Shown: piece by piece, positions 1,322 through 43,235 of the stretch
Numbering within the stretch: the stretch's first letter is position 1
Layout of the letters: each line of letters starts with the position of its first letter
The notes under the pieces: generated by a model
The model's database searches: none
What the model saw: only the letters and a program-made list of their open reading frames with translations
What the model was told of the DNA's origin: nothing
Translations under genes and position numbers: made by a program
NCBI GenBank assembly: GCA_944381075.1
Contig: CALWJT010000016.1
Location: 4,155 to 68,154, forward strand
Length of the DNA: 64,000 bases
Direction: 5' to 3'
From: an uncultured Clostridia bacterium
GTDB lineage: Bacteria > Bacillota > Clostridia > Oscillospirales > CAG-272

Positions 1322-4300
1322 ATGAAATCCAACTTTGAATTTCTAAATAGATATTGGCCTGTGCTGTCACAATTAGGCGCGAATGCAGAAAACTATCTGT
1401 ATTCTGATTCCAATGCGTGTATCTATAAACTAGGTATGTTTGCCGAGCGCCTGGTTCAGGAAATTCTGGTATTTGAACATATGGACGAACCCAAGACAGA
1501 TAATACACACGCTAATCGCATTCGTTTGCTGAAGCGTGCCGGCCTTCTTCCTCACGAGATTGATAATACACTATATGTTCTCCGTAAAACCCGCAATTCC
1601 GCAGTGCATGCAGGAACAGATTCCGTAGATGAAGCAAAAACGCTTCTTTCCATGACATACAATTTAGCGGTTTGGTTTATGGAGACATACGGCGACTGGG
1701 GATTCCTTGCCGAAGATTTTATTATGCCCGAAGAAGTACAGCAGGCAGACTTAAAATTAGTCATAGAAGATCAGGAGAAAAAGATTGCCGAACTGTCAAA
1801 AAAACTTGCAGAAGTAACAACGGCGGTTTCGGGCACAACGCAGAAAGAACGTGCAAAACGGGCTGAAACGGTTTCTTTTATGATACAGTGGAATGAAGCG
1901 CAGACCCGCCGTTTGATCGACGAGCAGCTTCGCAAAGCAGGATGGGAAGCCGATACCACAAACCTGCGTTACAGCAAAGGTACCCGCCCAGCAAAAGGCA
2001 GAAATATCGCTATCAGCGAATGGCCTACCAATTCTGCTTTTTATAAAAACGGATATGCAGACTATGCCTTCTTCATTGGGGAAAAACTCGTCGCTTTAAT
2101 GGATGCGAAAAAGGCTTCGGAAGATGTTGCTTCTACCATTGATGTGCAGGTAAAAGATTATGCAAAGCATATTAAAGAGGAACACGCAAGATATGTTATC
2201 GGTTCGTGGGGCGATTATCAGGTGCCTTTCCTGTTTGCTTCAAACGGCAGAGCATTTCTGGAGCAGCTGCGAACAAAATCCGGCATATGGTTTTTAGACG
2301 CAAGAAAAACATCCAACCAGTCCTATCCAATCCGAAATTGGTTCAGTCCCAGCGATCTGGAAGAAAAATTAAGTCAGGATATTGACAAAGCCAATGAAAA
2401 CTTATCTAACTATAACGATTCGTTTATGGAAGACCCTACCGGTCTGAATCTTCGTGACTATCAGATGAAAGCGGTCAACAAGGCGACCGAAGCAATCATG
2501 AACGGAAGCCGTACGGCACTGCTTGCAATGGCAACCGGTACCGGTAAAACACGAATCGTGCTTGGTCTGATTTATAAAATGTTGGAATCCAAACGCTTCC
2601 AGAGAATTCTGTTTCTGGTTGACCGCATAGCGCTCGGCGAACAGGCAATGGACACTTTTAAGGATGTCAAACTAAAAGATTTAATGACATTAAATGAAAT
2701 CTATGAAATTAAAGACATTGAGGATAATGAGATCAATCTGGAAACTAAAGTTAGCGTTTCTACTGTTCAGGGATTATTAAAGCGCACCATTCTGTCCGAA
2801 ACGCCGGATTTAATGCCCGGAGCATTCGATTTGATTATTGTAGACGAAGCGCATAGAGGATATATTCTGGACAAAGAAATGACCGAAGAAGAAATTCTCT
2901 ATGATAATCAAGATGACTATATGAGTAAATATAAACAGGTCATCGAATATTTTGACGCAGTAAAAATTGCTCTCACGGCTACCCCTGCTCTGCACACCAC
3001 TGAAATTTTCGGTGAGCCGATTTTTACATACAGCTACCGGGAAGCCGTGATCGACGGTTGGCTGGTCGATCACGACCCGCCTTATATCATCAATACAGAT
3101 TTTATTGAAAACAAAGCGAAATTCAAAAAGGGGGAAACGCTTGCTCAGTATGATCCCAACACACATGAGCTGATAAATGGGACAGTATTACAGGACGAAT
3201 TGGATTTTGATGTTTCGGAGTTCAATAAAAAAATCGTCCTTCCCGACCATACCCGTAAGGTTTTAGAGGAAATATCCAATTACATAAACCCCGAAAGCGG
3301 CGAAAAAACATTGATTTTTGCCGTAAACGATAACCATGCGGATTGCATTGTAGATACGCTTCGTGATATTTATAAGCCTTATGGCATTTCCAATGAGGCG
3401 ATTATGAAAATCACAGGCAAAACCGCCGGCGGCAACAAAAAGAAAATTTTGCAGGTAATCAAACAGTTTAAAAACAACCAATATCCGAATATTGCCGTTA
3501 CCGTTGATTTACTGACAACCGGCATCGACGTTCCGGCTATCTGCAACCTTGTGTTTATGCGGAAGATTAACAGCCGTATTCTGTTTGAACAGATGCTGGG
3601 GCGTGCCACCCGCCTATGCCCTGAGATCGGCAAAACGCATTTTAACATTTTTGATGCGGTACGAGTGTATGAGGATTTAGACCCCACGTCCGGAATGAAA
3701 TCTGTTTCCGTAAACAAAACAATGTCGGAGCTACTGGAAGATCTGTTCCGTGGCAGCGGAGAGAATAAGCAGCCGGTTAAAGATCGTATTCTTGCAAGAA
3801 TTCAGCGCAAAAACAACGATCTTACACCGGAGCAAAAATATGAGGTCACGGAACGCTTGGGCGGTATAAATTTAAGAGCCTACGTCCACAAGCTGAAATC
3901 CTGCACGGAAAAAGTATTTATCGAGACCTGCAAAAAGGATAAAGACTTTTTGCTGTGGGTGGATTCGCTCAAAGGCAGGAAAAAAGGTTATTTCTATTCT
4001 GAAAAAGAAGACACTTTGAAAGAAACTACCCGGGGCTACGGCAATACGGAAAAGCCGGAAGATTATTTGGAAGCTTTTACGAAATTCGTAAATGAGAACA
4101 AAGATAAAATTGAAGCGATTCGAATTGCCTGCACCAAACCAAGTAGCATGACCAGAGCACAGCTCAAAGAGCTAAAACTCGCTTTGGATAAAGAGAATTT
4201 TACGGAAACCAGCCTGAACGAAGCCACCAGCGCCGTTACCAATGCGCATATTGTGGCGGATATTATCGCTCATGTTCGCAAGGCTGTGCTGAAAACGCCG

Positions 4301-27961: not shown

Positions 27962-28883
27962 TTATACAGAGTGATGATGGAAATAATAGTTCTGCATGGC
28001 TTCGTAAATATCCTCTTCACGCCATAAACATGGCTTTGCACATCTCTCAATTCGCTCCCGCTTACAACTCCCTACACAAATAGGCAAACATTTACACCGC
28101 TTACAGTCTTCAAAGTTTTCAAATTCAAATACGCTTCTTTTCCACAGATATCTTTGAAAATCCTGATATGGTTTTCCAAGACCGGAAGAACTCAGCTTGA
28201 TATTTTCAAAACCGTCTTCCGAAAGTATTCCGCCCCACAATACATTGTCACAGTCAAGCACGATACATTTCTTTGATATTCCGTATGTAATCAGGTATTA
28301 TTTATATATTTCCAAACTGATTTTTTTCAGATAACGATTGACTGTACGGATAATTCCATCTGTACTTGTTTTTGATGCTATATTCGTTCGATATTCCGAC
28401 GGATGCAATCAGGCGTTTGGTATCGATAAACGTGATTTCGGAGTCAAACTCTTCTCGTATTTGAACGTTGATTTTGTCCACCAATCCATTCGAAGCATAC
28501 TGCGAACCGAACACAAAGGAAGAATTCCATTGCCAATCTTCATATCCGAACCATAATACAGATGCCTTGGAATTTTTTCTGATTGCCTCCCAGATGCGAT
28601 GTGCTTTTTCAAGTTCAAAGTCAACAATCGCGCTTACCTCTGTCAACGAATCCTCATCCAACACCCCCGGGTATGTGTCCTCAAAACTCAAAAGAATTAC
28701 GACAAAATCGATCTCGGCAAATCATTGTAACGACTTAGTCGAACAATATTCATCGTAATTCACAGTGTCTATTCTAATCCGAATTCCGTTTTGCTCAAAT
28801 ATCCGATTGGCAGACGGTACCAAAAACGGTTCGACAGACAGATTGGAGACAAAGGACAGCTCAAATAAAGATTTTTCCTGCAT
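27962..28883 (-). pseudogene. FkbH-like HAD-IIIC protein remnant fused to a radical SAM SPASM C-terminus
   Basis: ATG 28883 with GAGGTG RBS, in-frame TGA 28722-24, frameshift near 28325; KCIVLDCDNVLWGGILSEDG...YQDFQ (FkbH motif I) runs directly into CKRCKCLPICVGSC...C. Confidence 0.75.
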
Positions 28884-28897
28884 AGATTCACCTCATC

Positions 28898-29176
28898 TTA
28901 TGGATCCCTGGATTCAAGAACCGATTTATTGCTTTCGCTGACAGCAAGTTGGAGCACCTCCAACATCTTGTTAACCGAATTCATTTCGGTCAATAGCAAT
29001 TTTTCATCAGGTATCTCACATTCAAATGCTTCTTCAAGCGACACAACAATTTGAATGAATTTGATAGAATCCACTCCCAACTCCAGCAGATCGTTATCAC
29101 ATTGATCTACGGTCACTTCCATGTCTTGAACGGAATTAACGATTTCCAGTATTTTTTCTTTTGTTATTTCTTTCAT
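28898..29176 (-). CDS. Acyl carrier protein
   Basis: ELGVDSIKFIQIVVSLEEAF phosphopantetheine motif; start overlaps upstream stop. Confidence 0.88.
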   Translation of the reverse strand: MKEITKEKILEIVNSVQDMEVTVDQCDNDLLELGVDSIKFIQIVVSLEEAFECEIPDEKLLLTEMNSVNKMLEVLQLAVSESNKSVLESRDP

Positions 29177-30087
29177 TCGCTTATCCCCAGAAAGACTCGC
29201 TTATTGATTGCGATCTTTTCCTTATCCCGTTCTGTTAGGGTCTCTTTGATCAGTTCGTAAAGATGATCCGAATCAAGCCTTGTTTTGAAGTCACACTTCC
29301 ATTCACGCCGTTCCTTTTCGCATAAACCGTAGCTATTCAGAAGTGCCTCTCCCACCGGTGTTCTGAATGCTTCTATGTACTGCTTTAATACATCGTCATC
29401 AAATACCTGACCTGTATAGTATAAGACATAAAAAACATAGGGGATAATCTCATATTCGACACTCATGGTATACAGTTTGTCTAAAGATATCGCGTCAAGA
29501 TTATTTTTCAGCAAGTAATATACATCCTTGAACATATCGTATCTGATGCTTTTCCTGGTTGCGAGCAGAAAAAGAGAGTTTATGTCTTTATAGTGGTGAA
29601 GAATAAGATGAATCATTGCTTTTATCGGGGGCAACGTTTTCACTTTGACACCGTAAATCTCCATTTCTATTGTGTCTGACAGGAATTCCTCAATGTCTAT
29701 TCGCTTGCCTTCATATTCTCCCCAAAAGATGTCATAATTTAAGTCTATATAAATAGCATTTCCGTTTATATTTTTTATATATGGTAATAATTGGTGTGAA
29801 TTGGTAAGTACAAAAATTCTATCTTCTCTGCTATAATTAGAATATATATTCATAAAACCATTTGCTTGTAAGACCTCTTCAAGTTTTTTTAGAGTTTTTC
29901 GCGAAACTAATATATCAATATCATTGTACAAACGCATGCCGTTTTTCTGATATGCTTCAATCGATAATGGCTCTCCTTTTACTATAGCAAATAAGTATTG
30001 TTGTGTATCAATGAGTAATTGTGATAACTGTTTGTAAAGAAACTTGCCTTCAATTAGATTCTTCATCCGAATAGCTTCTTGAATCAT
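29173..30087 (-). CDS. Nucleotidyltransferase family protein (NTP_transf_5-like)
   Basis: IVKG...Y...R..NDIDILV, HLILH, FKDVY. Confidence 0.8.
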   Translation of the reverse strand: MIQEAIRMKNLIEGKFLYKQLSQLLIDTQQYLFAIVKGEPLSIEAYQKNGMRLYNDIDILVSRKTLKKLEEVLQANGFMNIYSNYSREDRIFVLTNSHQLLPYIKNINGNAIYIDLNYDIFWGEYEGKRIDIEEFLSDTIEMEIYGVKVKTLPPIKAMIHLILHHYKDINSLFLLATRKSIRYDMFKDVYYLLKNNLDAISLDKLYTMSVEYEIIPYVFYVLYYTGQVFDDDVLKQYIEAFRTPVGEALLNSYGLCEKERREWKCDFKTRLDSDHLYELIKETLTERDKEKIAINKRVFLGISE

Positions 30088-30090
30088 GAT

Positions 30091-31017
30091 TTATACTACC
30101 TCGTTTAAAATATAATAATAAAATTTTTCAGAGCATTGATGAATGCAAAATAGATCATCACAAATATCCAAATATTTAAACGGAATGTTTTGAATAATAT
30201 AAATAAATAACGAGGAATTCAGTATGTTTTTAACATGTTCAGGCAAAAGGTAGCTAATTCCAACGACATTATTCAACAGTAAACTTTTCTTTTGTAATTC
30301 ATTGTCTATATTCTTTACTTCAATCCCGATTTTATTTCTAACTCTCCGTAAAAAAAATATGCATTTTAAATTGAATATTCCAGAAATATTTCCAAACCCC
30401 AAGTTAAGGCATCGGCTTTCTATAAATTTTTTCCCTTGTAAACTTTCTTTTGCAGTAACAAATATATTATCTTCATTTGAAAGGCTTTTAAATGTACTGA
30501 AGTTCATTTTTAATGGCATACTATTAGAAAAACATGAAATAATATTATTAGTCCTTGTTAAGTATAGTGTATCGTCTGAAAAAACATTTGTAAATTTTGT
30601 CAAATGTGAAACAAAAGTGGTTTTTCCAACGCCCTTATCCGCGCAAAATGCTATAATTTTTTTATTACACTCAATACTGCTTGCATGAAGCAGGATATCT
30701 TTACAATTATGTGCCAAAATAGAAAAAGGCAAATTATAGAGTGTGGATTCAAGTTCATTTTTATTTTTATAATATGCCTTAATCCTATTGTTTTCCACAT
30801 CAATAACATATGAAGTAAGTGGCGATTCAATAATATAATCCTTATTATTTTTCGTGCAATAAATTTTTTCATTGTCGAATGTTTTTTCATTATGGCAAGA
30901 TAAATCTATGATACAATCTGACATAAAAAAGTTTTCATTGCATTTAGGAAGAAAACTAAGTGGTATATTAGATTTTAAAATAAATTTATAACAATTATAA
31001 ACATACTGTTCATTCAT
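30091..31017 (-). CDS. HPr-kinase-like P-loop protein (candidate peptide kinase)
   Basis: LLHASSI...FCADKGVGKTT...FSDD. Confidence 0.75.
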   Translation of the reverse strand: MNEQYVYNCYKFILKSNIPLSFLPKCNENFFMSDCIIDLSCHNEKTFDNEKIYCTKNNKDYIIESPLTSYVIDVENNRIKAYYKNKNELESTLYNLPFSILAHNCKDILLHASSIECNKKIIAFCADKGVGKTTFVSHLTKFTNVFSDDTLYLTRTNNIISCFSNSMPLKMNFSTFKSLSNEDNIFVTAKESLQGKKFIESRCLNLGFGNISGIFNLKCIFFLRRVRNKIGIEVKNIDNELQKKSLLLNNVVGISYLLPEHVKNILNSSLFIYIIQNIPFKYLDICDDLFCIHQCSEKFYYYILNEVV

Positions 31018-32830
31018 ATTCTTTAATCACCTTATTAATCTCATAGGCGTGCGCCTGCTTTTCAAACATATCACGGTAATAACTGTTCGGATCGGAACAT
31101 AATTGCTCATGTGTTCCAGATTCAATAATTTTTCCGTTATCAATCATTATAATTTTATCAGAGCAAACCGTCGTTGTTAGTCTGTGCGAAACAAATAAAG
31201 CAATCTGATCAGATGTCATTTGCATGATTTTTTCATTAAGCTTAAACTCTGCAAACGGGTCAAGAGAACTATTTGCCTCATCTAAAACAATAACTGACGA
31301 ATTTCGAATATAAGCCCTTGACAAAGATAGTTTTTGTAACTCGCCACCAGAGAAATTGACCCCGTTTTCATCAAATTCCCGCCCGATATTTGCATCTATT
31401 CCCCCATCAATACCTTTAATCTTATGAGATAGTCCGCTGAACTCCAATGATGCCTGGATATCTTTTTCATTATAAACTTCTCCCATTGATATATTCTCTC
31501 GAATGGAAAAAGCGAAGATATTGTAATCTTGCATGACTGTTGCAAAACATTTCCTTAAATTAACAATATTATAGTTTTTAATATCAGCGTCGTTTATCAA
31601 TATCTCCCCATCGGTTACATCGTACAGTCTTAATAATAGCTTGATAATAGTTGATTTCCCGGCACCGTTTCTTCCAACTATCGCTACCTTTTCACCAGAT
31701 GTTATACGAAATGATATATTGTCCAGAATCAGTTCATCGTGATGCGGATATTTAAAAAAAACATTTTTGAACTCTATGGAAATAATCTTTTCAATACTTT
31801 TTTTATCTTCAATATCGTTTTCAATTGATGGCTGATAATCCAAGATTCCGCGTAAATGTGACACATAATATTCGCTTTCAAAATTTAATCGGTCAAAAGA
31901 ATTGATAATACCAGCCAATTCACCTGAGATTTGATAACACGCTGAAAACAACACGGTGAAACTGCCGAGTGTAATATCTCCGGTAATCGTTTTAAATGCA
32001 ATATAACCTAATAAAACAGGTGCTATCATTAAAGTATTTATTACACTGATAATGTATTTAAACCTCCAATATTTCGCTTTTGTTTCTTTGTATATTTTAT
32101 ACTTTTCAACAAATGTTTCATTAAGTTTATTAATTAAGAACTGCCCTAAGTTATAGAGCCTTACATCTTTGGCGAAATCTTTGAAATGAGAAACCTTTTT
32201 TATGTATTCTGATTTTCTGTTAATTGTTTCCTCTGCTTCATACTGCTCCTGGGAATATCGGCTTGATCTGTTTTGATCAAAAAATGATACAACAACCATA
32301 ACCGCAATGATAATAAGTATAAACGGATCTAATGTAATTATAATTGACGATAGCAGAATTACATTGAATACATTTTTGGCAATAGAAAAAAGTATATTTA
32401 AAAAGTCCAAGGCTTTTGTATCAGCATACCTTATCGCTTTCGTATAATTATCATAAAATTTGAAATTTTCATAGCACTCCAAATCTTGTTTCATGGCTTT
32501 TTTTATAAATACATTCTGCAAATTATTTCGCAACTTATATTCTCTGCTTGATATAATAACATTGCTTATAATGGTAGAAGCGGAATACAAAATGAAAGAA
32601 ATTACCTGCAGAATAATGATATGCCTGATAACAATATTAAAAGAGTTTTTCGCCGTAATAGAATCTATGATCCACTTAATATATAAAGTTCCGACTGCAG
32701 TTTGAAGCGTTGCAATAATTAACGAAATGAATTTTAACGGTATTATAAATTTATCGCCATTCCAAATATATTTTAACATTAACTTAATATCAGCGATTGT
32801 GATTTTTAGGGGATGCTTTTTATTTGTCAT
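31010..32830 (-). CDS. ABC exporter, fused permease/ATPase (no C39 peptidase domain)
   Basis: TM helices, GRNGAGKST, FSGGELQK, VLDEA, SHRL; GGAG RBS before MTNKK at 32830. Confidence 0.93.
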   Translation of the reverse strand: MTNKKHPLKITIADIKLMLKYIWNGDKFIIPLKFISLIIATLQTAVGTLYIKWIIDSITAKNSFNIVIRHIIILQVISFILYSASTIISNVIISSREYKLRNNLQNVFIKKAMKQDLECYENFKFYDNYTKAIRYADTKALDFLNILFSIAKNVFNVILLSSIIITLDPFILIIIAVMVVVSFFDQNRSSRYSQEQYEAEETINRKSEYIKKVSHFKDFAKDVRLYNLGQFLINKLNETFVEKYKIYKETKAKYWRFKYIISVINTLMIAPVLLGYIAFKTITGDITLGSFTVLFSACYQISGELAGIINSFDRLNFESEYYVSHLRGILDYQPSIENDIEDKKSIEKIISIEFKNVFFKYPHHDELILDNISFRITSGEKVAIVGRNGAGKSTIIKLLLRLYDVTDGEILINDADIKNYNIVNLRKCFATVMQDYNIFAFSIRENISMGEVYNEKDIQASLEFSGLSHKIKGIDGGIDANIGREFDENGVNFSGGELQKLSLSRAYIRNSSVIVLDEANSSLDPFAEFKLNEKIMQMTSDQIALFVSHRLTTTVCSDKIIMIDNGKIIESGTHEQLCSDPNSYYRDMFEKQAHAYEINKVIKEYE

Positions 32831-32927
32831 TTTAATCTCCATTCTGTCGCTTTGAGTCAGCACAAATAGTGATGAAAAAGTGCCGGATAGCGGCGATTTT
32901 GTAACAAAATTGTTGTAAAATACATAT

Positions 32928-33320
32928 GCAGGAGTATATATCAAACCTGCGTTAGTGCAAGTCGCTCACGTAGCCGTAAAAGCCACAGACAATTCTTACT
33001 ACCGCTTAAAGTATGATCAAATCTCCAAACGCAGAGGGAAGAAACATGACATTATTGCCATTGCACGGAATGATCCTCACTGCTGTTTTCCCAATTATAG
33101 CAAGGACTAAGATGTGGTCAAACCTTGCTTTTGATGAACCACCGTTGCCTGCTTAATAGCTTTGGACAAAAGCTTTTCTCAAGAAGTTTACCTTAAAAAG
33201 ATCGGTGGGATTCCAGACCTAACCCGTGGCTATATTCGCTTTCGTTAACTCTGCAAAGAATTGTTTTGTGCAGGGCTTTCTTGTTGCACTTTCTCGGCGG
33301 CAAGTGATTCGTATCTTTCA
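32928..33320 (+). mobile_element. IS110-family transposase remnant, internally rearranged
   Basis: Plus strand AGVYIKPALVQVAH...KRRGKK...IIAIAR/MILTAVF; the following C-terminal piece (VWNPTDL...KAIKQA...QGL) lies on the minus strand at ~33105-33222. Confidence 0.7.
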
Positions 33321-33322
33321 CG

Positions 33323-34654
33323 CTATTTTCTTCGAATGGATTTAATCATGTAATTATACTTATTCATTAGGACTTCTGATGTAACAATAAAATCATTTGG
33401 GCAACGATTATTACCATTTATAATTCTCGATTTAGGACAATTCTGAGCAAAACAAACAGGCAAATTGATGCATTCCTTGCATTTGTTTTCAAGTTCTATT
33501 TTTCCATTTGGCAAAACAAAACGGCTCCATTTATATAAATTAAATTCTATTCTTTCATTCTCAATTGTTCCTACAACATTAAATTTATCAAGTTCTTCAT
33601 CTTCTTCGTTGCATTTTCTTAATTTTCCATCGCTCCCTAATGTAAAGTGATATGGCAACCCAGCATAGCAAACTCGTTTGAATGGATTATAATAATTATA
33701 ATTTGTTAAGGGTTCTATCCCTTTTTTAATCGCCTCTTCCATTAACATAACTGTCGTGTACGGTTCTATAGAATAATCAATAACATCAAGAGCTTCATCG
33801 TTCTCGCCTCCCCATTTACCAATAGTATGAAAAAACACGGTAAACCTACTATCAAGATTATCTTTTATTGCATCAAACAGTTCATTTATACCAGCAAATG
33901 TTTCGTTATTATAGTTCACTCTGATAGAAATATGAAAATCAAACTCTTTAAAAGAATTAAAAGTTTTTAAATTATCAAATATTATATTCCATGTAGGTCG
34001 TCCATCTGATAATGGTCTGTTGCTATTATGAGTTTCTTTATCTCCATCTATTGTAATTTGGAAAAAATCAAATTGATTGTTCAATAGATATTCAATCTGA
34101 TCTTTAGAAAATAAAGATCCATTTGTTGTTGCGCCATAATGATATCTAACATTTTTACCGTAAAAAAAACTATTCAAATTATCAGTAACTTTCTTTATTA
34201 TATCAAATGAAATGAATGGCTCTCCACCAAACCACTCTATATAAAAATCTTTTAACCCATGATCATAATAATAATTTTTTATTGCTTTTATAAATTTATC
34301 TATATTTTCATCAGAAATTACTTTTTTGCCATGTTCTTGATAACAATATTTACATCTAAAGTTGCATATATTGTTGGGCATTATTATAAAAGACAAATTT
34401 GTAGGATCAAACATTTGTTTATAATATGATGCCATCACTTCTTGCACTTCATCAATATCATCAGGAACACAAAACGCTTTTTTAAATATGTCATTTTCTA
34501 TATTATCACAGTCTTTTTTCTTTAAAGATAAAAGATCTCCTTTAAGTTTTTCTTCTTCATTATTGACAAAAATTTGTGCTCCATTTTTCATATTATATAA
34601 TAATACGCCATCTTCTACTTCATGTATTACTGTATATTTTGATATTTTTAACAT
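33323..34654 (-). CDS. Radical SAM/SPASM peptide maturase
   Basis: CNFRCKYC, WFGGEP, TTNG, ITIDG; SPASM CYAG...C...CKECINLPVCFAQNC...C; N-terminal RRE-like segment; AAGGAG RBS. Confidence 0.93.
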   Translation of the reverse strand: MLKISKYTVIHEVEDGVLLYNMKNGAQIFVNNEEEKLKGDLLSLKKKDCDNIENDIFKKAFCVPDDIDEVQEVMASYYKQMFDPTNLSFIIMPNNICNFRCKYCYQEHGKKVISDENIDKFIKAIKNYYYDHGLKDFYIEWFGGEPFISFDIIKKVTDNLNSFFYGKNVRYHYGATTNGSLFSKDQIEYLLNNQFDFFQITIDGDKETHNSNRPLSDGRPTWNIIFDNLKTFNSFKEFDFHISIRVNYNNETFAGINELFDAIKDNLDSRFTVFFHTIGKWGGENDEALDVIDYSIEPYTTVMLMEEAIKKGIEPLTNYNYYNPFKRVCYAGLPYHFTLGSDGKLRKCNEEDEELDKFNVVGTIENERIEFNLYKWSRFVLPNGKIELENKCKECINLPVCFAQNCPKSRIINGNNRCPNDFIVTSEVLMNKYNYMIKSIRRK

Positions 34655-34735
34655 ATATATTTTCTCCTTAAATTAAATAATACCATTCAGATGGTCGGGA
34701 CTAAAACTTAAACTTATTCCGACATTAGTTGTGGT

Positions 34736-34775
34736 ACAACATAGAACTTTAGTTTTGAATAAGCTCTATGTTGTA
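34736..34775 (-). terminator. Stem-loop between precursor and maturase genes
   Basis: tacaacatagaactt...aagctctatgttgta inverted repeat just 3' of the precursor stop. Confidence 0.6.
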
Positions 34776-34783
34776 CCCGCATT

Positions 34784-34906
34784 TTAACTACCGCAGGAAC
34801 CTTGACATCCATTGCATTTGCCCTTGCAACCACAATTAGTGTCACATCCTGGAGGGCAATTGCCATTCGATCCATTTAATGAATCGATATCAGATAAGAA
34901 ATACAT
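34784..34906 (-). CDS. Cys-rich RiPP precursor peptide (40 aa, not in ORF track)
   Basis: AAAGGAG RBS; MYFLSDIDSLNGSNGNCPPGCDTNCGCKGKCNGCQGSCGS*; directly upstream of the rSAM gene. Confidence 0.85.
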   Translation of the reverse strand: MYFLSDIDSLNGSNGNCPPGCDTNCGCKGKCNGCQGSCGS

Positions 34907-35790: not shown

Positions 35791-36100
35791 CCAGATACAC
35801 TTTTTGCCCCGAGTCCGCTTTGTATCTCTGTGCCCGACCGTGATAAAAGGCTATAGTTCCGCATTAAATCTAATTCTTAATTGTGTTGTAAGATCATCCG
35901 AGGTGTCTCGCAACCCGTAGATTGACTAGCCGTTCTTTTCGATGCCCCTCAATTTCGTGTCATTCTTCCGAGGTTGCGAGTGGGCATGGCATTCGCGATA
36001 TTCTGTGATATAATAGGCGTTGTATATAACAATCATCCCTCTGGAATTTGGAACCGTTGCAACTTTATTTTTGCAATTGCGCTACATGTTGGAGATTTAA

Positions 36101-36149
36101 AAACCCGCACAAGTGCGCCATAACTCAGTGCATGCACTTGTGCGGGTTT
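36101..36149. repeat. Perfect 16-bp inverted repeat
   Basis: aaacccgcacaagtgc (36101-16) / gcacttgtgcgggttt (36134-49). Confidence 0.8.
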
Positions 36150-36416
36150 AGAAGTCTCGGGTGGGAAATGCTGATTGCACTTGCGCTTGGGAGACATTAG
36201 GTTTTTATGAGCTTTTACTAAATTAAGTGTAACATGAGCGTCATATTTTGTCAATACAAATATTTCCATTACATGCAAAATCGTGGACATACACAAAAAA
36301 TAATGAAAATCCATGCTGTTATACTTGGTTTTTTGTGCAGTATTGATATAATTTATACAAATTGCACAAAAGAAGACGATTAGGATGTTGAATGGTAACC
36401 ACTGATCCATTTTCTC

Positions 36417-37050
36417 TTATGTTGCCGTTACCACCATCGTTGTGCTTGTTTTCATCCTGAACATACACGCATCTGTTTTTCCATCTTTCCGTTCTGTAAG
36501 CGTGCCGGTCAAATGTTTCAGATACATTCTGTTCAGCGCCGAAGTACCGAGGAAAGCCTTCACATTTGTCACAGGAAGGACACACCATTCGCTGTCGGTT
36601 GGTTTGTTAGCGATATAGTATTCGAGTAGCGTCCTTGTTACATTCAGCGGAACAGACTTTGGCGTGACAGCGGCAAGCCTCTGTTCTTGTTCTTCCGTTA
36701 GGGTAATCGATTCTTGCCGCAATGCACCCAGCTCCAGCGCATCTGCAATCACATCATCAAAGCGAAGAATCAAATCCCCCTTTGTTCCTTCCGAAAAGAT
36801 CGGGATTTGGTATTGTATGACCTTCTTACGCCAAGCATCCTCCAGTTTTTCGATGTTGCCGACAATTTTTTGTGTGGTCTTGCCTACCTTGTCGCGGCTG
36901 GCGTTAATAAAATCTACGATGCCGTGCAAGTGCCGGATAGCTGTTCTCGTCTACAAGCTCCGGAAACTCATCGTGAAGTTCACGGAAATCTGTTTTGAAC
37001 TGCCACTCCGCCTTCGGGGTGGCATCCTTTTTGTCCGGAATACTGCAGTC
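36417..37050 (-). pseudogene. Frameshifted hypothetical gene downstream of the RNAP-like gene
   Basis: Coding-like frames IPDKKDATPKAEWQFKTDFRELHDEFPEL / ...YYIANKPTDSEWCVLPV; 5' end lost. Confidence 0.5.
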
Positions 37051-38700
37051 TTAATGCGTGTCGCATTCATCTCGGTGAACAGGGCATATAGACTCTCGGA
37101 GTCGTATGTGTCCTCTTGGTCACGTATCATGAGAATGCGGTCAATATCTCTTCTCTTGGAATTGCTCGGTGTCGGATGACTGTTTGAGCGAATACGACGC
37201 AGACAGCGGTCGTAGGTGTCGATCAACTCTTTTATCGGCTCAAAGAGAGCTGCATCGAGGTTGTCCTGCCAATTCGGAGATTTAGCAAAGGTGAAAAGTC
37301 CGGAGGACGGCGCGGGCTTTGGAACTTTCCTCGGCGTGTTCTTTTTGAGCATATAAGCATAGTACGGCAGCTTTTCCACATTCGCCGTTACGCTGTCCCA
37401 ATCGGTACTATCAATGTATTTTTTCATCTTTTCCGCAAAGGTATCTTCATACCACGCAGGGCGAGCTTCGGATTCTTTGGGGCGTGATCCACATAGTAAT
37501 CGAACTGAAACCATTCGTCGTTGAGAAGGCGGTAATAGATTTCTTCGGTCGTTTTGGTAAACCATGATCCGGTATCGCTGTCATTTAGCTCGTCCTCTTT
37601 GTCAATATGATCTTTCATCCAGTCAGACGGTTGATCAACTGGTCTGAATTGATCGGTACTCAGAGCAAGCGTGGATAAAAACTGATAGTTCAGATCCGTG
37701 TACTGCTCATTTTCAGTGTTGTTGACACCTGTAATATACAAAGCGTGGCGATAGTTCCGGCAACGGTCAAGATATTCCGAAAAAGTCAGCCCGTTTTCGG
37801 TCATCCAACCACATCCCTTGAATTGGCTCTTGGTCAGAATCATATGAATACGCTCGACTGGGTGTGAAATGCCCACATATCTGTAATCGTTGTGACTGTT
37901 GCTTCTCTGCAGAGTCCGTGAAAGTCCACCTCATGCACCATGCCCTTGATATATGGCATACAGATCTGGAAGGATGTATGAATGTGTTGGCCGCAGTAGA
38001 ATCTGTCAATTGTGGCGGCAAGTTCGGGAGATACAATTCCCTCACCGTCAAACAGCGTGACCTTGATATCGCTCTTTTTCTCGACTCTCTCATAGTTGCG
38101 AACACCACCGACACCTGTGGTGTCGGTGGTGACATCGATGTCGGGATATACGGCTGTCGGGTTGTCAATAATGACAATAGCATCCTTTCCCCATAACATA
38201 TCCGTCTCAATGCGTGTACCGCTTGAAAATAATAAACCGTTGTAGGCATAGAGCTTGGATAGCTGACAATCGCCAATGGTCATACCGACCATCATACGGC
38301 GGCGAAGTTCGTCATACACATCCGCACGAATAAAAGAGAGCTTTGCGTTTCGGTTCATACTGCCCGATCGCTCAAAGACAAGATAACGCATAGAGCCGTG
38401 ACCAAAGTCCAATGTGATCCCCTCGGGGCGAAACATGGACTCGGTCTTTTTCTGCATAAGTGCGGTCTTGGGGTTATCCGAATCCCGATCAAATATCCCC
38501 TTGAAGTCAGGATAGAGCATGACATCACAGAGGTCTGAAATGACGGTGTCCTCGGTCGGCTGTTTGTAGTCGTTACCTCGGATGACGCACATGGACCTGA
38601 AAGAAAATGGCGTTGTCCTCCTGCCATGTGTCGCTGTTTCCCATCAGCACGCTTTTTGTCTGTGCCTCGGTGAGGTCAAAGAAATAAATATCGTTACCCA
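37050..38700 (-). pseudogene. YonO/RdRP-like single-subunit RNA polymerase, fragmented
   Basis: Ordered motifs FERSGSMNR, SKLYAYNGL, FDGEGIVSP, SFQICMPYIKGM, ILTKSQFKG, LNYQFLSTL; frameshifts near 38595, 37870 and 37460; catalytic DxDGD region absent. Confidence 0.75.
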
Positions 38701-38985
38701 TCGGCTTTGCATAGGAGAGCATCGCCGCTAAGACCGGCATGGGAGACGGCGAATACTTGCGCGTCTCGGCGCTCGGAAAGACAATCTACTAGGTCGAGGA
38801 ACTCAAACCAATCCTTCATGAGCTGAAAGGCATCGGCAGAAATCTCAATCAGCTCACCATGCTGTGCCATCAGGGCGTGATCCACATGGTAAACCTGACC
38901 GCAACATCCGATGCCATCAGGCGATGCTATCAAGCAATAAACAAGCTCTGTGCCAGCACGGACGGCGTCATAGGAAGCGGTGATG
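38700..38985 (+). pseudogene. mobC: MobC relaxosome accessory protein remnant
   Basis: YLRVSALGKTIY*VEELKPILHELKGIGRNLNQLTMLCHQG; GxNxNQ motif; in-frame TAG and no 5' end. Confidence 0.7.
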
Positions 38986-39846
38986 GCGACCGTTATTTTT
39001 ATCAAGGAAAGCAAACAACCCCCCAGTGCTATGCGGGGTTGCATCAACTATTGCGTGCAGGAAAAGAAGACCGTAGATTCTAACGGTCGGCAGTATGTGG
39101 GCGGTGTTAACTGTTTAGGTAAGTACGCATATGAAGAATTCATGGCGACAAAAAACCTTTATGGCAAGGCATCGGATATCTATTTTTATCAATATGTGCA
39201 ATCCTTTATGCAGGGTGAGATCCAGTCTTATGACGAAGCTCACCGCATAGGTATGGAGTTTGCCGAGCAGTTCTTTCCGGGTTATGAGGTGCTGGTAGCA
39301 ACGCACCCGGATGCTTACGATGATAGCGGCGTTCAGCGCGTGCATAACCATTTTATTGTCAATTCGGTCAGCTTTGAGGATGGCAGAAAGATTCACTTCA
39401 CGCCTAACACTTTACAGGAGCTAAGAAAAATCAGTGATTCCATCTGCGCGGAACATGGATTTTCTGTCCTCTCTCCCTCCGAGCGAACTTACGGCAAAGC
39501 CATCGGCACACGGGAATACCGGACAACCATGAAGGGGAACGGCCGGAAATTCCAGCTCATCAATGACATTGACACCGCCATGACACAGGCGGGAGACAAA
39601 CGCGAGTTCTGTGATACCCTCGCCTCTGCCGGTTATACCGTCACCTGGACGGATACAAGAAAATATATCGCATTCACCTGCCCGAACGGAATGAAAGTTC
39701 GGGACAACAAATTACACGATAACAAATACAGAAAGGATATTTTAGAGTATGAATTATCAATCAGACAACAGCTTACAGAACAACACCCTGCGTCAAGCCC
39801 AATGGAGCGGCTAAAGCGGCATCCAAGACTGCGGTCAGGACGATAG
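38980..39846 (+). CDS. MOBP-type relaxase/mobilisation nuclease (probably 3'-truncated)
   Basis: N-terminal Tyr in CINYCV, QYVQSF, VLVATH...VHNHFIVNSVSFEDG 3H motif. Confidence 0.85.
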   Translation: MMATVIFIKESKQPPSAMRGCINYCVQEKKTVDSNGRQYVGGVNCLGKYAYEEFMATKNLYGKASDIYFYQYVQSFMQGEIQSYDEAHRIGMEFAEQFFPGYEVLVATHPDAYDDSGVQRVHNHFIVNSVSFEDGRKIHFTPNTLQELRKISDSICAEHGFSVLSPSERTYGKAIGTREYRTTMKGNGRKFQLINDIDTAMTQAGDKREFCDTLASAGYTVTWTDTRKYIAFTCPNGMKVRDNKLHDNKYRKDILEYELSIRQQLTEQHPASSPMERLKRHPRLRSGR

Positions 39847-39849
39847 AGG

Positions 39850-40296
39850 AAACGCTGTATCAGCCGATCGTCTATGCGATTCCGAAGGAGGACTGGAACG
39901 CCTTCAGGGAGTGGGCGAAACAAGCGGTAACATTTCAACCGACTGTATCAGCAGATAGCGGCGCTGACGACCAAGAAGGAGTCAGAGGCTTACACGGACG
40001 AGATGTGGAACAAGATACAGAACTGGTCGAGGAAGTTTACAGAACAAGTGAAACCGTCCTCGGAGAGCATCGTGCCGAGGGTGAACAAATTGCTCTACGA
40101 CAACAAGGAACTTTTGCAACAGGATGGGAAAGCGGGAGACGAGTTTATTTCGAATCTCAATGTGCGAGAGCAGACGCGGATCGACAAGTACGAAGAATTG
40201 CTTATGAAGACGAAACGGTGGATCATCACGGCGATCGCATCGACCATCGGCAGTTCGGCGATTTTGAGCACGGTGATCTGTCTCTTGATGAGATAA
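39850..40296 (+). pseudogene. Fragment of a hypothetical protein with a C-terminal membrane helix
   Basis: Frameshifted coding-like sequence ending KRWIITAIASTIGSSAILSTVICLLMR. Confidence 0.4.
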
Positions 40297-40299
40297 GAG

Positions 40300-41109
40300 C
40301 GTTCTTCCGGGATGAACAATCGGAAGATGACCGTCTTTGCAACGACCCGCCCGAAACGGACGGATGGACAAAGCAGAAATATTACGACCTACGGGAGCAG
40401 GCAGAGCTTGGCAACAAATATGCCGAGTACCGCCTCTCCCGCCTTTTGTTTGACGAGAACAGCCCTTATTACGACAGCTATGACGGAGCCTGCTACTTGG
40501 AATCGTCCGCCAAAAAGGGGTACTATGGCGCAATATCGGCTCGGCAAGATGATCTATCAGGGCGACTATTACCGCCAAATGCCCGAAAACGCGGCGTATT
40601 GGTTGATCTTATCCGCAAAACAGAACAATCCCTACGCAGAGATGCTTCTCGGTCAGCTGTATATTCTCGGGGATTTTCTGCGACTTGACAAAAAGGCGGG
40701 CTTTGGTCTTCTGTATGATGCCATCAGTGACGCCAACGCCGCTTATACCCTCGGAAAATATTATGCTGAGGGTAAGCACTTGAAGAAAAACATTCCGAAA
40801 GCGATTGCTTTACTGGAGCAAGCAGCACAGATGGGCAATCCGTTTGCAGAATACCGACTTGCCAAGATCTATCCCTTTGAATCAGACTATTTCGATTGGC
40901 ATGAACACGGCAGCACACAAGGGCAACGAAAACGCCTACCGGGCATTGCAGAATATGAACCGCAATCCTGTTTCTCTATCACGACCCGGATAGCAGACCT
41001 TATCGGCGATCTCTCTGCCACGTTCGACAAAAGACCGGCGGTGAAAGATTGCACGACCATGCCGCAACGCAAAGAAAGGAAGAAATATGAGTATGAGCAA
41101 TGTATGTAG
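40300..41109 (+). pseudogene. Sel1-repeat protein, frameshifted
   Basis: AELGNKYAEYRL, AQYRLGKMIYQG, SAKQNNPYAEMLLG, AAQMGNPFAEYRLA spread over two frames. Confidence 0.7.
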
Positions 41110-41145
41110 CCGAGCAAATTTATCACATTTTTATGAAAGGGGGCG

Positions 41146-41370
41146 ATGCTTATCAGCCGGACGAAAGAAACGATGCAAGGTATGAAAGAACGATTCAGCG
41201 GCATGCCGACAAGCAGTCATGTAGTAGTTATTGACGGTATCCGCTATACCGTTGTCAGTCATTACACAGGAAGTAAGAATGTAGACCATGTAATCCGCAA
41301 AATAGCCGAAAAACAGGCACTGGCGGATATGAGCAGTCAAAACGGAAAAGAAGAAAAGATTTCGGCATAA
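41146..41370 (+). CDS. TnpW-like small transposon protein
   Basis: VIDGIRYTVVSHYTGSKNVDHVIRKIAE; sits directly upstream of the serine recombinase. Confidence 0.5.
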   Translation: MLISRTKETMQGMKERFSGMPTSSHVVVIDGIRYTVVSHYTGSKNVDHVIRKIAEKQALADMSSQNGKEEKISA

Positions 41371-41476
41371 ATTTGCCGAGTTAACAATTAGCAGCTTGCT
41401 TTGTCATGTGCTTTGTGGTATCATAAAGGCACATACAAATCAGGCTGCTTTGACATGACAGAAAGGATTTTATTGG

Positions 41477-43141
41477 ATGTCAAAGCAAACACAAAACAAA
41501 AAAGCAGGTCTATTACAGATTGTCACAAGAGGATGAACGAGCAGGTGAATCCCCGTCCATTGAGAATCAGAAAAAGATACTTGAAAAGTACGCCCATGAA
41601 AACGGTTTTGAGATCGTTGACGAGTATATCGACGACGGCTGGAGTGGTACAAACTTCAACCGCCCTGGCGTACAGCGGCTACTGGAGGATGCCAAGAACG
41701 GCAGGATCAATGTCATCATCGTCAAGGACTTGAGCCGTTTCGGAAGAAACTATATTGAAGTCGGGCAATACACGGATTATCTGTTCCCGACCTACAATAT
41801 CCGGTTCATTGCCGCAGGCGACAATGTGGACTCGGCTACGACCGAAAATTCGGGCATGGATATGACACCGATCATGAATGTATTCAACGAATGGCACGCC
41901 GCTAACACGAGCAAGAAAATCAAAGCGGTCATTGAAGCAAACGCCAAGGAAGGGATCTACCGTAGCAGCTATGCGCCGTATGGATATATTAAGGGCGATG
42001 ATGAAAAACGGTTGCCTGTTATAGACAGTGAAGCAGCAGCAAACGTCCGAAGAATATTTGAAATGCGGGCATCCGGTGTCAGTCCGAACCATATCGCGCA
42101 GACCTTCAATGATGAGGGCATCCTTCCTCCAGGGGACTAAAAAGAACAAAAGTTCGGTATTCCGAATACACGCAAGTCGCACCATTTACGGTCGAGCGCT
42201 ACGGTAAAGCAGGTTTTGACCAACCCCATTTATCTCGGACACCTCGTTCAGCCCCGCACTACGAATATTTCTTACAAGAACAAAACGCAGATCAAACGTG
42301 ATCCCGAAGATATGATATGGGTCTACAACACGCATGAAGCCATTGTGACACAGGAGTTGTGGGATAGGTGCCGTGAGATGGAAGCGTCGGTCAGTCAGGG
42401 TAAGAAAAACAAAACGGGATATGTCAATCCGTTGTCCGGACTCGTCTACTGCGCCGATTGCGGAAACAAGATGTATATCAAGTACAACAATACCCGACAC
42501 AAGCGTGGCGGCGAGAGAACCTACTACCGTCAGAACTTCACATGCGGCGCATATTCCAAATTGGGTGAGCGTGCCTGCACAAGTCACTATATCAAAATCG
42601 ATGTTCTTTCAGATATTCGCTCCAAAATGAACCTTGTGCTTACCGATGAAAAGCGGGCAAGAGAGGAATTCATCAGCCGTAACGAAAAACTCAGCACTGC
42701 TGAAGCCACCGCCGACCGCAAGAAGCTGAAGAATCCACGCACCGACTTGCCGAGCTGGACAAGCTGATCGGCTCGGTTTATGAGGACAAGGTGCTTGGTA
42801 AAATCCCCGAAGAAGTCTGTATCAACCTGCTGGAAAAATACCAGAAAGAAAAGAAATCTCTCACTGAAACGATCACCGCACCGGAGCAGAAAGCGCAGAC
42901 CATCCGTGATGATGCGGCGAACGCCGATGAATTCATCCGCAGGTTGAAAGCCTATATGGAAATTCCCCAGCTGACCTGCGAGATGTGCATAGAGCTGATC
43001 GAATTCATCCCCGTTGACGAGTGCCCCGGCAAGTATAGCAAAGCTCCCAGAGAGATCCATATCTATTACAAACTGATCGATAAAAAATCCTCCGCTGAGC
43101 AAATCGCTTCGTGGGGAGCAAATGGGAACGAAAAAGTGTGA
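41477..43141 (+). pseudogene. Large serine recombinase (TnpX/TndX-like), multiply disrupted
   Basis: YRLSQED...SIENQK, YIDDGWSGTNFNRPG, VKDLSRFGRN, YGY, NPIYLG, HEAIV, LSGLVYCADCG zinc ribbon; frameshift near 41510, TAA at 42138 and further frameshifts. Confidence 0.88.
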
Positions 43142-43149
43142 CGGTTTTT

Positions 43150-43235
43150 GATGTCCACTACTTTAGGAATTTATACGCACTTATACCCGAGTCGGCAAAA
43201 CGAAATTGCAAATAAATTTAGAAAGTTTTGCATAG
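43150..43235 (+). pseudogene. C-terminal remnant of a tyrosine integrase
   Basis: STTLGIYTHLYPSRQNEIANK matches the TT.xYxH catalytic-Tyr tail of phage integrases. Confidence 0.65.

Follow-up and report, generated by a model that had tools for sequence, protein, structure and literature searches.

The window analysed here, a 64,000-nt stretch from an uncultured Clostridia bacterium, carries at positions ~36099-43150 (~7 kb) a decayed integrative mobilisable element (IME) in which every gene is dead. The intact relatives of this element are shown here to form a family of phage-free IMEs of gut Clostridia, which share an invariant operon of two genes and a divergent block for mobilisation and integration. 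The first gene of the operon encodes a two-barrel polymerase of the RNA-dependent RNA polymerase (RdRP) type, distantly related to YonO of the SPbeta prophage as judged from sequence comparison and a structural model, and the second gene, cl1, encodes a protein of ~285 aa from no known family, predicted to bind the polymerase. A sequence-only reading of the window had proposed a family of IMEs with their own single-subunit polymerase, and the recurrent layout in the relatives supports this proposal. We favour, with a probability of roughly 0.4, the reading that polymerase and cl1 are a DNA-targeted RNA polymerase pair that would prime the replication of the element itself; transcription of element genes is nearly as likely.

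An invariant polymerase-cl1 operon in phage-free mobilisable elements

A scan of species-representative genomes gave 80 homologous loci, almost all from Clostridia and mostly from Oscillospiraceae. Many of them are metagenome bins, and the taxon label of one (L005, a 'Sphaerochaetaceae' bin) may be a binning error. Genes were taken from crude open reading frame (ORF) calls of our own and clustered, and the resulting gene families were then mapped by tblastn as a guard against gene-calling errors. Linkage to cl1 was counted only where the polymerase match was full-length and 1 kb or more of downstream sequence was available (n = 57), relaxases and integrases only in loci with at least 7 kb upstream (n = 36), and helicase neighbours only in loci with at least 2.5 kb upstream (n = 52); related loci are not independent of each other in these counts.

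In all 57 testable loci cl1 lies directly downstream of the polymerase gene, on the same strand. Upstream, and on the opposite strand in all mapped layouts, 30 of 36 loci have a relaxase and 33 have an integrase, with 29 loci combining the two. The integrase is a serine recombinase in 22 of the 33 loci and a tyrosine integrase in 11, and the relaxases belong to PF03432 or MobL, often with Sel1 repeats. The linkage of the polymerase to relaxase and recombinase, which had been read from the decayed copy, is thus also seen in intact relatives. Annotation of representatives with Pfam, PHROG and NCBIfam resolves three layouts:

Layout A: serine recombinase, relaxase::Sel1, NikA, optional DUF927, then the divergent polymerase-cl1 operon
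Layout B, first part: recombinase, ParB_N protein, relaxase, MbpA-like accessory protein, ribbon-helix-helix protein, ParM-like actin (ALP_N)
Layout B, last part: Cys_rich_VLP, in four loci a DUF5906/Pox_D5 helicase of superfamily 3 (SF3), then polymerase-cl1
Layout C: tyrosine integrase, DUF6809, an unknown protein, MobL::Sel1, a 211-aa protein (possibly ribbon-helix-helix, from an Atlas lead only), then polymerase-cl1

A FastTree phylogeny of 55 polymerases tracks these three layouts, and the integrase type switches within lineages. The DUF927 protein, which has Walker A and B motifs, lies beside the polymerase in 11 of 52 loci, and the SF3-type DUF5906/Pox_D5 protein does so in 4 loci. No primase domain was detected in either protein, and the DUF927 protein has no sequence relative in the PDB. 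The earlier statement that the element has no recognisable Rep holds in so far as no classical Rep family was matched among the representative element proteins scanned, but has to be qualified, since some lineages carry SF3-type helicases next to the polymerase.

The absence of phage structural genes noted in the window extends to the family, as a PHROG scan of 134 ORFs from 7 loci revealed no capsid, portal, terminase or tail module. One 'tail/endolysin' match in that scan was rejected, being an SLH-domain 5'-nucleotidase. These data bear on the possibility that the polymerase was left behind by a YonO-bearing prophage and came to lie by chance beside an unrelated mobilisable transposon. Related genes do occur in 35 phage records, including SPbeta-like, Thomasclavelia and Enterocloster phages, but all are at most 27% identical and align within aa 1-721 at most, and no phage or plasmid record covers 80% of the polymerase (tblastn). 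Moreover, the same divergent arrangement of polymerase, relaxase and integrase recurs in most loci, and the window is collinear by blastn across polymerase, cl1 and relaxase with its closest intact relative, L003 (scaffold titled Eubacterium sp. CAG:841), which serves as our reference and was compared with the window by tblastn of its proteins and by blastn. A prophage origin is therefore already contradicted, and we regard it as very improbable. Pfam and PHROG scans of the neighbouring genes, though not designed to exclude type IV secretion genes, brought none to notice, and the search of L003 did not identify flanking (att) repeats.

When the window's order was sampled, 14 of 301 genomes and 12 of 152 genera had the polymerase gene. 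An intact ORF of 980 aa or more is present in 59 of the 80 loci, while 10 loci are cut by contig ends and 11 are broken, partial or without a long ORF, so that carcasses like that of the window are not rare. Some single assemblies hold two or three different copies (L001/L011, L052/L053, L067/L078, L030/L072 and the trio L033/L064/L080), and L007 has two polymerase genes on opposite strands, ~2.4 kb apart.

Several relatives lie beside tRNA genes: a tRNA-Ala(cgc) gene adjoins the recombinase in ParM-type serine-recombinase elements (L032, at 3480-3555, L037, L042 and L058), and a tRNA-Pro(ggg) gene adjoins tyrosine-integrase elements (L013, at 3631-3707, and L022). Reads of other organisms diverge just beyond position 3555 of L032, where the tRNA gene ends. 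When two RNA-library and two DNA runs were compared with L032:2500-15500, neither an end-to-end joint nor a clean empty site appeared, although absence cannot be demonstrated from contigs and thin raw-read cover. The RNA-library contigs match polymerase, cl1 and ParM with 0-2 differences, with DNA carry-over possible. The polymerase-cl1 operon of this ParM-type element (L032:9956-13821) is near-identical in ruminant gut samples: each of 17 runs, drawn from 8 or more studies of the years 2017-2025, contains at least 96% of its sampled words, which suggests a recent wide spread. In two metatranscriptome libraries from sheep gut, 47% and 23% of the words of this operon are present. Intact material for experiments thus exists.

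Fold of the polymerase and its predicted complex with cl1

The four polymerase motifs described in the sequence-only reading were found again in the window ORFs, on the minus strand and in the order given: FDGEGIVSP and SFQICMPYIKG in ORF 37840-38592, LTKSQFK and LNYQFL in ORF 37424-37876. The 250-aa fragment encoded by 37840-38592 retrieved 1658 proteins at E ≤ 0.001 among 2403 candidates. Among the 120 homologues listed for it, 116 carry PF05183 (RdRP) and are ~1015-1023 aa long, and the top matches are 77-89% identical; the motifs are therefore not due to chance. By themselves the window fragments have no RdRP match in Pfam or NCBIfam, so the homology had to be shown through the intact relatives.

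The intact polymerase of L003 matches PF05183 at 56.4 bits (E 2.9e-15; cut-off 23.8 bits), and also PHROG 8308. A tblastn comparison with SPbeta yonO gave 24% identity over aa 121-379 (E 4e-7). In an alignment of 33 polymerases the three aspartates of the DYDGD motif (D588, D590 and D592) are invariant in all 33, as are D242 (of FDGEG), R271, K276, K319, R539 and P541. Together, these residues are what we take to be the expected set, given the eight invariant residues that PMC2919709 reportedly lists for two-barrel enzymes, with a putative one-to-one mapping. A single polymerase sequence found nothing among PDB sequences, while a profile aligned the DYDGD of the family to that of QDE-1 below threshold (E 0.6). 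The AlphaFold model of the L003 polymerase (pLDDT 85.9, pTM 0.79) has its best Foldseek matches in the eukaryotic enzymes RDR2 (7eu1_M, E 3.4e-14) and QDE-1 (2j7n, E 3.4e-13), with E up to 1e-11 and TM 0.37-0.46 among the best matches, followed by phage P74 gp62 and P32 gp64 (1e-5 to 7e-5) and then by bacterial beta'. Family profile, yonO comparison and fold search thus agree with the relationship to two-barrel RdRPs and YonO that had been proposed from the motifs, and the fold search that had been suggested as a check did find two-barrel polymerases. Both genes of the operon are under purifying selection, with dN/dS of 0.08-0.21 in 10 polymerase pairs (2 more being saturated at synonymous sites) and 9 cl1 pairs.

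In 32 of 41 loci the start of cl1 overlaps the polymerase stop codon, and in 7 others it lies 6-11 nt after it. A GGAGG-like Shine-Dalgarno sequence usually precedes this start, and the two genes are in most cases translationally coupled. The cl1 protein matches no Pfam, PHROG, NCBIfam or PADLOC family and has no homologue in 50,697 phage records. A profile search of 1.84 billion representatives gave 766 relatives, the best 150 of which include no fused form and none longer than 334 aa; Atlas returned unnamed clusters only. The cl1 model (pLDDT 90.6, pTM 0.89) has no Foldseek match at E ≤ 0.001 in PDB or BFVD. VIA-align gives a generic winged-helix match for residues ~205-297 (Z 5-6), with the N-terminal 200 residues barely tested as a separate domain, and the top structural matches, tied and generic at Z about 6, include a chain of N4 RNA polymerase II and TFE/TFIIE-alpha.

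Modelling of cl1 together with polymerase residues 323-1023 supports a complex in which cl1 binds the polymerase at its C-terminal helical domain. The complex scored 0.77 in three runs, compared with 0.01 for the best control, and at least 78% of contacts agree between runs, with a partner pLDDT of at least 82. The mark applied to such models is reached by 58 of 80 solved complexes and by 2 of 110 mismatched pairs. We know of no similar complex, and it is therefore unlikely that the model passed by reproducing a known one. The predicted interface joins polymerase residues 841-939, in the C-terminal helical domain, to cl1 residues 73-76, 172-195, 239-246 and 277-285. It includes invariant or nearly invariant residues on both sides (W888, F919, R920, Y924, R925 and D929 of the polymerase; P172, F174, W182, D187, A191, D192, L194, E195, W244 and V246 of cl1). 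The C-terminal helical domain lies past the stretch that aligns to the phage homologues.

Thomasclavelia phage TR-TP1 (PQ571309.1, our locus L085, 1200-4869) encodes a distant 864-aa homologue annotated as an RNA-dependent RNA polymerase; the next genes encode a hypothetical protein of 209 aa and an IHF/HU-like DNA-binding protein. Phage polymerases may use a different small partner.

Possible roles of the polymerase-cl1 pair

In the favoured reading, polymerase and cl1 would form a heterodimer through the C-terminal helical domain of the polymerase, and cl1 would guide the enzyme to a site in the DNA of the element itself. Once the element has been excised, or has entered a cell as single-stranded DNA, the relaxase would start rolling-circle copying, and RNA made by the pair would prime DNA synthesis on the complementary or lagging strand. 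Polymerase and cl1 would in this way stand in for the missing primase or Rep, as the module that defines the replicon.

We favour priming because the scanned elements have a relaxase, and neither a classical Rep match nor a detected primase domain, and because two unrelated SF3-type NTPases sit beside the polymerase in different lineages. SF3-type NTPases are normally replicative helicases of mobile DNA. In a third lineage, the ParM-like and ParB_N genes imply an extrachromosomal, plasmid-like stage. In addition, polymerase and cl1 are constant, like the core of a replicon, while the integrase and other modules are exchanged. Precedents from other systems also favour this reading: QDE-1, a structural relative, takes single-stranded DNA as its template and acts together with RPA and a helicase (PMC2950127, PMC9508822), and an integrative element that replicates by a relaxase-driven rolling circle depends on a single-strand origin and on complementary-strand priming (PMC4595007). 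As a tentative, wider formulation, the pair may be a replication module in which an RdRP-type enzyme, recruited by a DNA-binding subunit, would prime or carry out the copying of the excised or transferred element, together with SF3 helicases where these are present. If so, the elements would represent a bacterial replicon type that lacks both Rep and a conventional primase, and would link RNA polymerases functionally to PolD, a DNA polymerase of the two-barrel kind.

Several points weigh against priming. The known integrative elements manage with host primase, or with host RNA polymerase acting at a single-strand origin. A helicase lies beside the polymerase in only 14 of 52 loci, and the lineage with gene family cl11 (14 of 52) has at that place just a possible ribbon-helix-helix accessory gene, again as a lead only. 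No convincing iterons or origin-like repeats were found in L003. The generic winged helix of cl1, part of which lies within the predicted interface, would suit a promoter-specificity factor equally well. Among bacterial relatives only YonO has been characterised, and it is a DNA-dependent RNA polymerase for phage late genes (PMC5467207).

The last two points lead to element-specific, YonO-like transcription, which we consider a serious though tentative candidate. Here cl1 would be a promoter-specificity subunit, and the pair would transcribe genes of the element, such as the mobilisation and integration block or a small RNA, making the switch to excision and transfer free of host sigma factors. 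Homology to YonO, a proven DNA-dependent transcriptase (PMC5467207), speaks for it, as do the winged helix of cl1, a fold present in many transcription factors, with the tied matches to the N4 RNA polymerase II chain and TFE/TFIIE-alpha, and the model of the complex; the divergent gene layout would suit a regulatory cascade. Transcription would nevertheless be costly, with 3 kb + 0.9 kb of an 8-12 kb element devoted to the expression of 4-7 genes. Furthermore, both divergent operons of L003 have sigma-70-like promoter matches (consensus match only), so that host RNA polymerase could transcribe them. The absence of cl1 from the phage records implies that phage enzymes work without it, and the recurrent SF3 NTPases and partition genes point instead to DNA replication or maintenance.

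In a conflict or defence role, RNA or foreign DNA would be what the enzyme acts on; it might, for instance, make antisense or double-stranded RNA and so exclude phages or rival elements, or counter host defence after transfer. The fold is that of the eukaryotic silencing RdRPs, defence and anti-defence cargo is frequent in mobile elements, and the distribution in the order is patchy (14 of 301 genomes). PADLOC, however, matched none of polymerase, cl1, the DUF927 protein and the gene families cl11 and cl24, there is no conserved nuclease, Argonaute or other effector beside the pair, and the pair is an invariant core and not variable cargo. We consider this role unlikely.

The family can also be set against known systems. 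The polymerases resemble YonO of the SPbeta prophage of Bacillus in first-barrel sequence homology, in being a single polypeptide with DxDGD and in being borne on a mobile element. They differ in being ~160-180 aa longer, with the extra C-terminal helical domain, and in always occurring with cl1; in addition, YonO is phage-borne and transcribes late genes (PMC5467207), whereas the present family resides in phage-free mobilisable elements. With the eukaryotic cellular RdRPs QDE-1 and RDR2 they share PF05183 above threshold, the aligned DYDGD and the best structural matches, but identity in structural alignments is 11-14%, and the context is bacterial, without silencing partners. Tn4451-type mobilisable transposons of Firmicutes combine a large serine recombinase with a Mob relaxase. 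The present elements are similar to these and other Firmicutes IMEs in their DUF4368 large serine recombinase, MobA/VirD2-type relaxase with accessory protein, small size and, in the relatives, position beside tRNA genes. Tn4451-type elements carry cargo such as resistance genes and are not known to have a polymerase, whereas in the present family the polymerase-cl1 operon recurs as constant 'cargo', accompanied by helicase or partition modules. To our knowledge, an element-encoded two-barrel polymerase has not been described in the priming role of integrative elements. As in ICEBs1, there is a relaxase and no Rep protein, and one lineage adds an actin-like partition ATPase and ParB-like genes; ParM-like partition is also known from SXT-family elements. 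ICEBs1-type elements differ in using host enzymes at a single-strand origin for priming (PMC4595007).

YonO-like proteins from Firmicutes 'main genomes' were noted earlier (PMC2919709, PMC5467207), chromosomal YonO homologues, noted since 2003-2010, were called 'enigmatic' (PMC2919709), and a 2021 survey mentions RdRP 'transposon relatives' in passing (PMC7824862). Supplementary YonO-like lists of PMC2919709 may already include members of this clade. Our literature search, with subscription journals and supplements outside its scope, found no description of the polymerase-cl1 operon, the fixed relaxase and integrase linkage, the helicase or partition neighbours or the heterodimer. Single-chain two-barrel polymerases have a central place in thinking about how RNA polymerases arose, and the phage enzyme YonO is the only bacterial one with a known job. 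To this, the present analysis adds a large, strongly conserved clade of polymerases that is the invariant core of phage-free mobilisable elements, an obligate partner of no known family with a predicted interface, and recurrent neighbours that are replicative-type helicases or partition genes. A vague annotation becomes a testable two-protein system, and possibly a new way for mobile DNA to prime its replication.

The decayed copy and its surroundings

The element remnant of the window comprises the following features, of which the polymerase was mapped by tblastn of the intact 1023-aa relative P0005:

36099-36419, minus strand: conserved non-coding tail downstream of cl1 (blastn against L003 13327-14288, 77% identity)
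36420-37047, minus strand: cl1 remnant with aa 87-299 left, one frameshift and aa 1-86 deleted (tblastn of L003 cl1)
37047-38728, minus strand: YonO/RdRP-like two-barrel polymerase pseudogene (tblastn of P0005; blastn against L003)
38715-38981, plus strand: remnant of a NikA/MobC-like relaxosome accessory gene, aa 25-113 of 114 (tblastn against L003, 73% identity)
38983-41106, plus strand: pseudogene of a relaxase (MobA/VirD2 nuclease domain) fused to C-terminal Sel1 repeats (Pfam; tblastn)
41146-41370, plus strand: 74-aa ORF without a recognised family, labelled tnpW earlier (Pfam, NCBIfam)
41481-43141, plus strand: large serine recombinase pseudogene with Resolvase, Recombinase, Zn_ribbon_recom and DUF4368 domains (Pfam; tblastn)

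The polymerase pseudogene retains four pieces of P0005: aa 14-58 (window 38728-38594), aa 56-300 (38601-37873), aa 301-436 (37873-37466) and aa 735-878 (37478-37047). They lie in three different frames, which indicates two frameshifts. An internal deletion of 905 bp has removed aa 437-734, including GGADYDGDMVKV of the intact relatives (the DYDGD site), so that the catalytic DxDGD triad present in the relatives is absent here. The start (aa 1-13) and the C-terminus (aa 879-1023) are also missing, and the FQIR motif has changed to FQIC (R-to-C). The window's own 2.0-Mb genome contains no second copy of the polymerase. The frameshifts and the loss of the DxDGD region had been recognised from the window alone, and the mapping bears both out.

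A further deletion, of 696 bp, joins polymerase aa 878 to cl1 aa 87. The L003 cl1 aligns at 74-79% identity (tblastn), with aa 87-129 at 37047-36919 and aa 127-299 at 36938-36420. ORF 36417-36929, which had been taken for part of the polymerase, is accordingly a remnant of this separate, conserved downstream gene. With polymerase residues 879-1023 and cl1 residues 1-86 missing, most of the predicted polymerase-cl1 interface is gone. A third deletion, of ~2.4 kb, joins polymerase codon 14 to codon 25 of the NikA/MobC-like gene (junction at L003 7611/10042), confirming by tblastn that the 5' end of the polymerase runs into the mobC remnant. The L003 homologue of the latter matches PF21983 (NikA-like, E 1.5e-13). 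L003 still has the deleted stretch, in which lie the DUF927 NTPase gene, a gene of 68 aa and the region with the divergent promoters. Comparison with L003 shows short repeats at the edges of at least the first two junctions (696 bp and 905 bp).

Pfam detects PF03432 (E 9.6e-29) and Sel1 (E 7e-11) in the relaxase ORFs. Relaxase and Sel1 repeats are thus present as first reported, but not as two genes: a single fused gene, encoding the 717-aa relaxase::Sel1 of L003, is broken in the window into four pieces in frames 1, 2, 3 and 1 by three frameshifts (tblastn). The 74-aa ORF matches nothing in Pfam and has one NCBIfam match at E 0.07, far under its cut-off, which leaves the label tnpW unverified. 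The recombinase pseudogene has an in-frame stop at 42138-42140, which tblastn of relatives crosses in one frame, a frameshift near 42730-42790 and no ATG upstream of its YYRLS catalytic motif. It is only 29% identical to the recombinase of L003, which suggests that the recombinase module was exchanged. The tblastn and blastn comparisons with L003 and the recombinase translations bear out the earlier view of this copy as dead. Its active site, predicted cl1-binding domain and promoters are lost, as are relaxase and recombinase, and the copy is in itself an ordinary fossil of the family.

The non-coding tail, on the minus strand, has a sigma-70-like promoter match and, ~90 nt further on, a long GC-rich hairpin with a T-run, both kept between the window (36100-36300) and L003 (14127-14290). 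In L003 the promoter match reads TTGACA-17-TATGCT with TG (10 of 12 consensus positions), and this copy has a DNA fold z-score of -3.1. An upstream GCACAAGTGC motif in the tail could pair with the 3' arm of the hairpin. The tail is either the terminator of the operon or a candidate ~110-nt RNA. The hairpin matches no Rfam family, and its exact motif was seen only in L003 and the window's own genome, because of which we read it as probably an ordinary lineage-specific terminator.

On the left, blastn homology to L003 stops at window position 36099. The right end lies at about 43141-43152, the flank being common to three relatives from ~43152 onward; it consists of an intact 623-aa gene, read as a putative GMP synthase (guaA-like), and an ABC-2 permease gene. 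In the comparison of empty sites, relatives share with the window only this right flank (guaA-like and ABC genes), with no match on the left side. The flank at the recombinase end differs, with spoIIR in L003 and the guaA-like gene in the window, and ~6-7 kb past the end of cl1 window 28402-30087 corresponds to L003 21346-23031, with genes at 70-82% protein identity. This pattern reflects either an old shared insertion followed by rearrangement or a swap of the recombinase module.

Adjoining the element, window 29173-34906 is a cluster of low GC content (0.27-0.35) on the minus strand, which looks like a peptide-maturation (RiPP-like) cluster. It contains a Cys-rich 40-aa ORF (34784-34906), a radical-SAM enzyme (33323-34654), an ABC transporter (31010-32944), a 308-aa ORF without known family and an NTP_transf_5 protein (29173-30087). 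At the matching place L003 carries a different set of radical-SAM and ABC genes.

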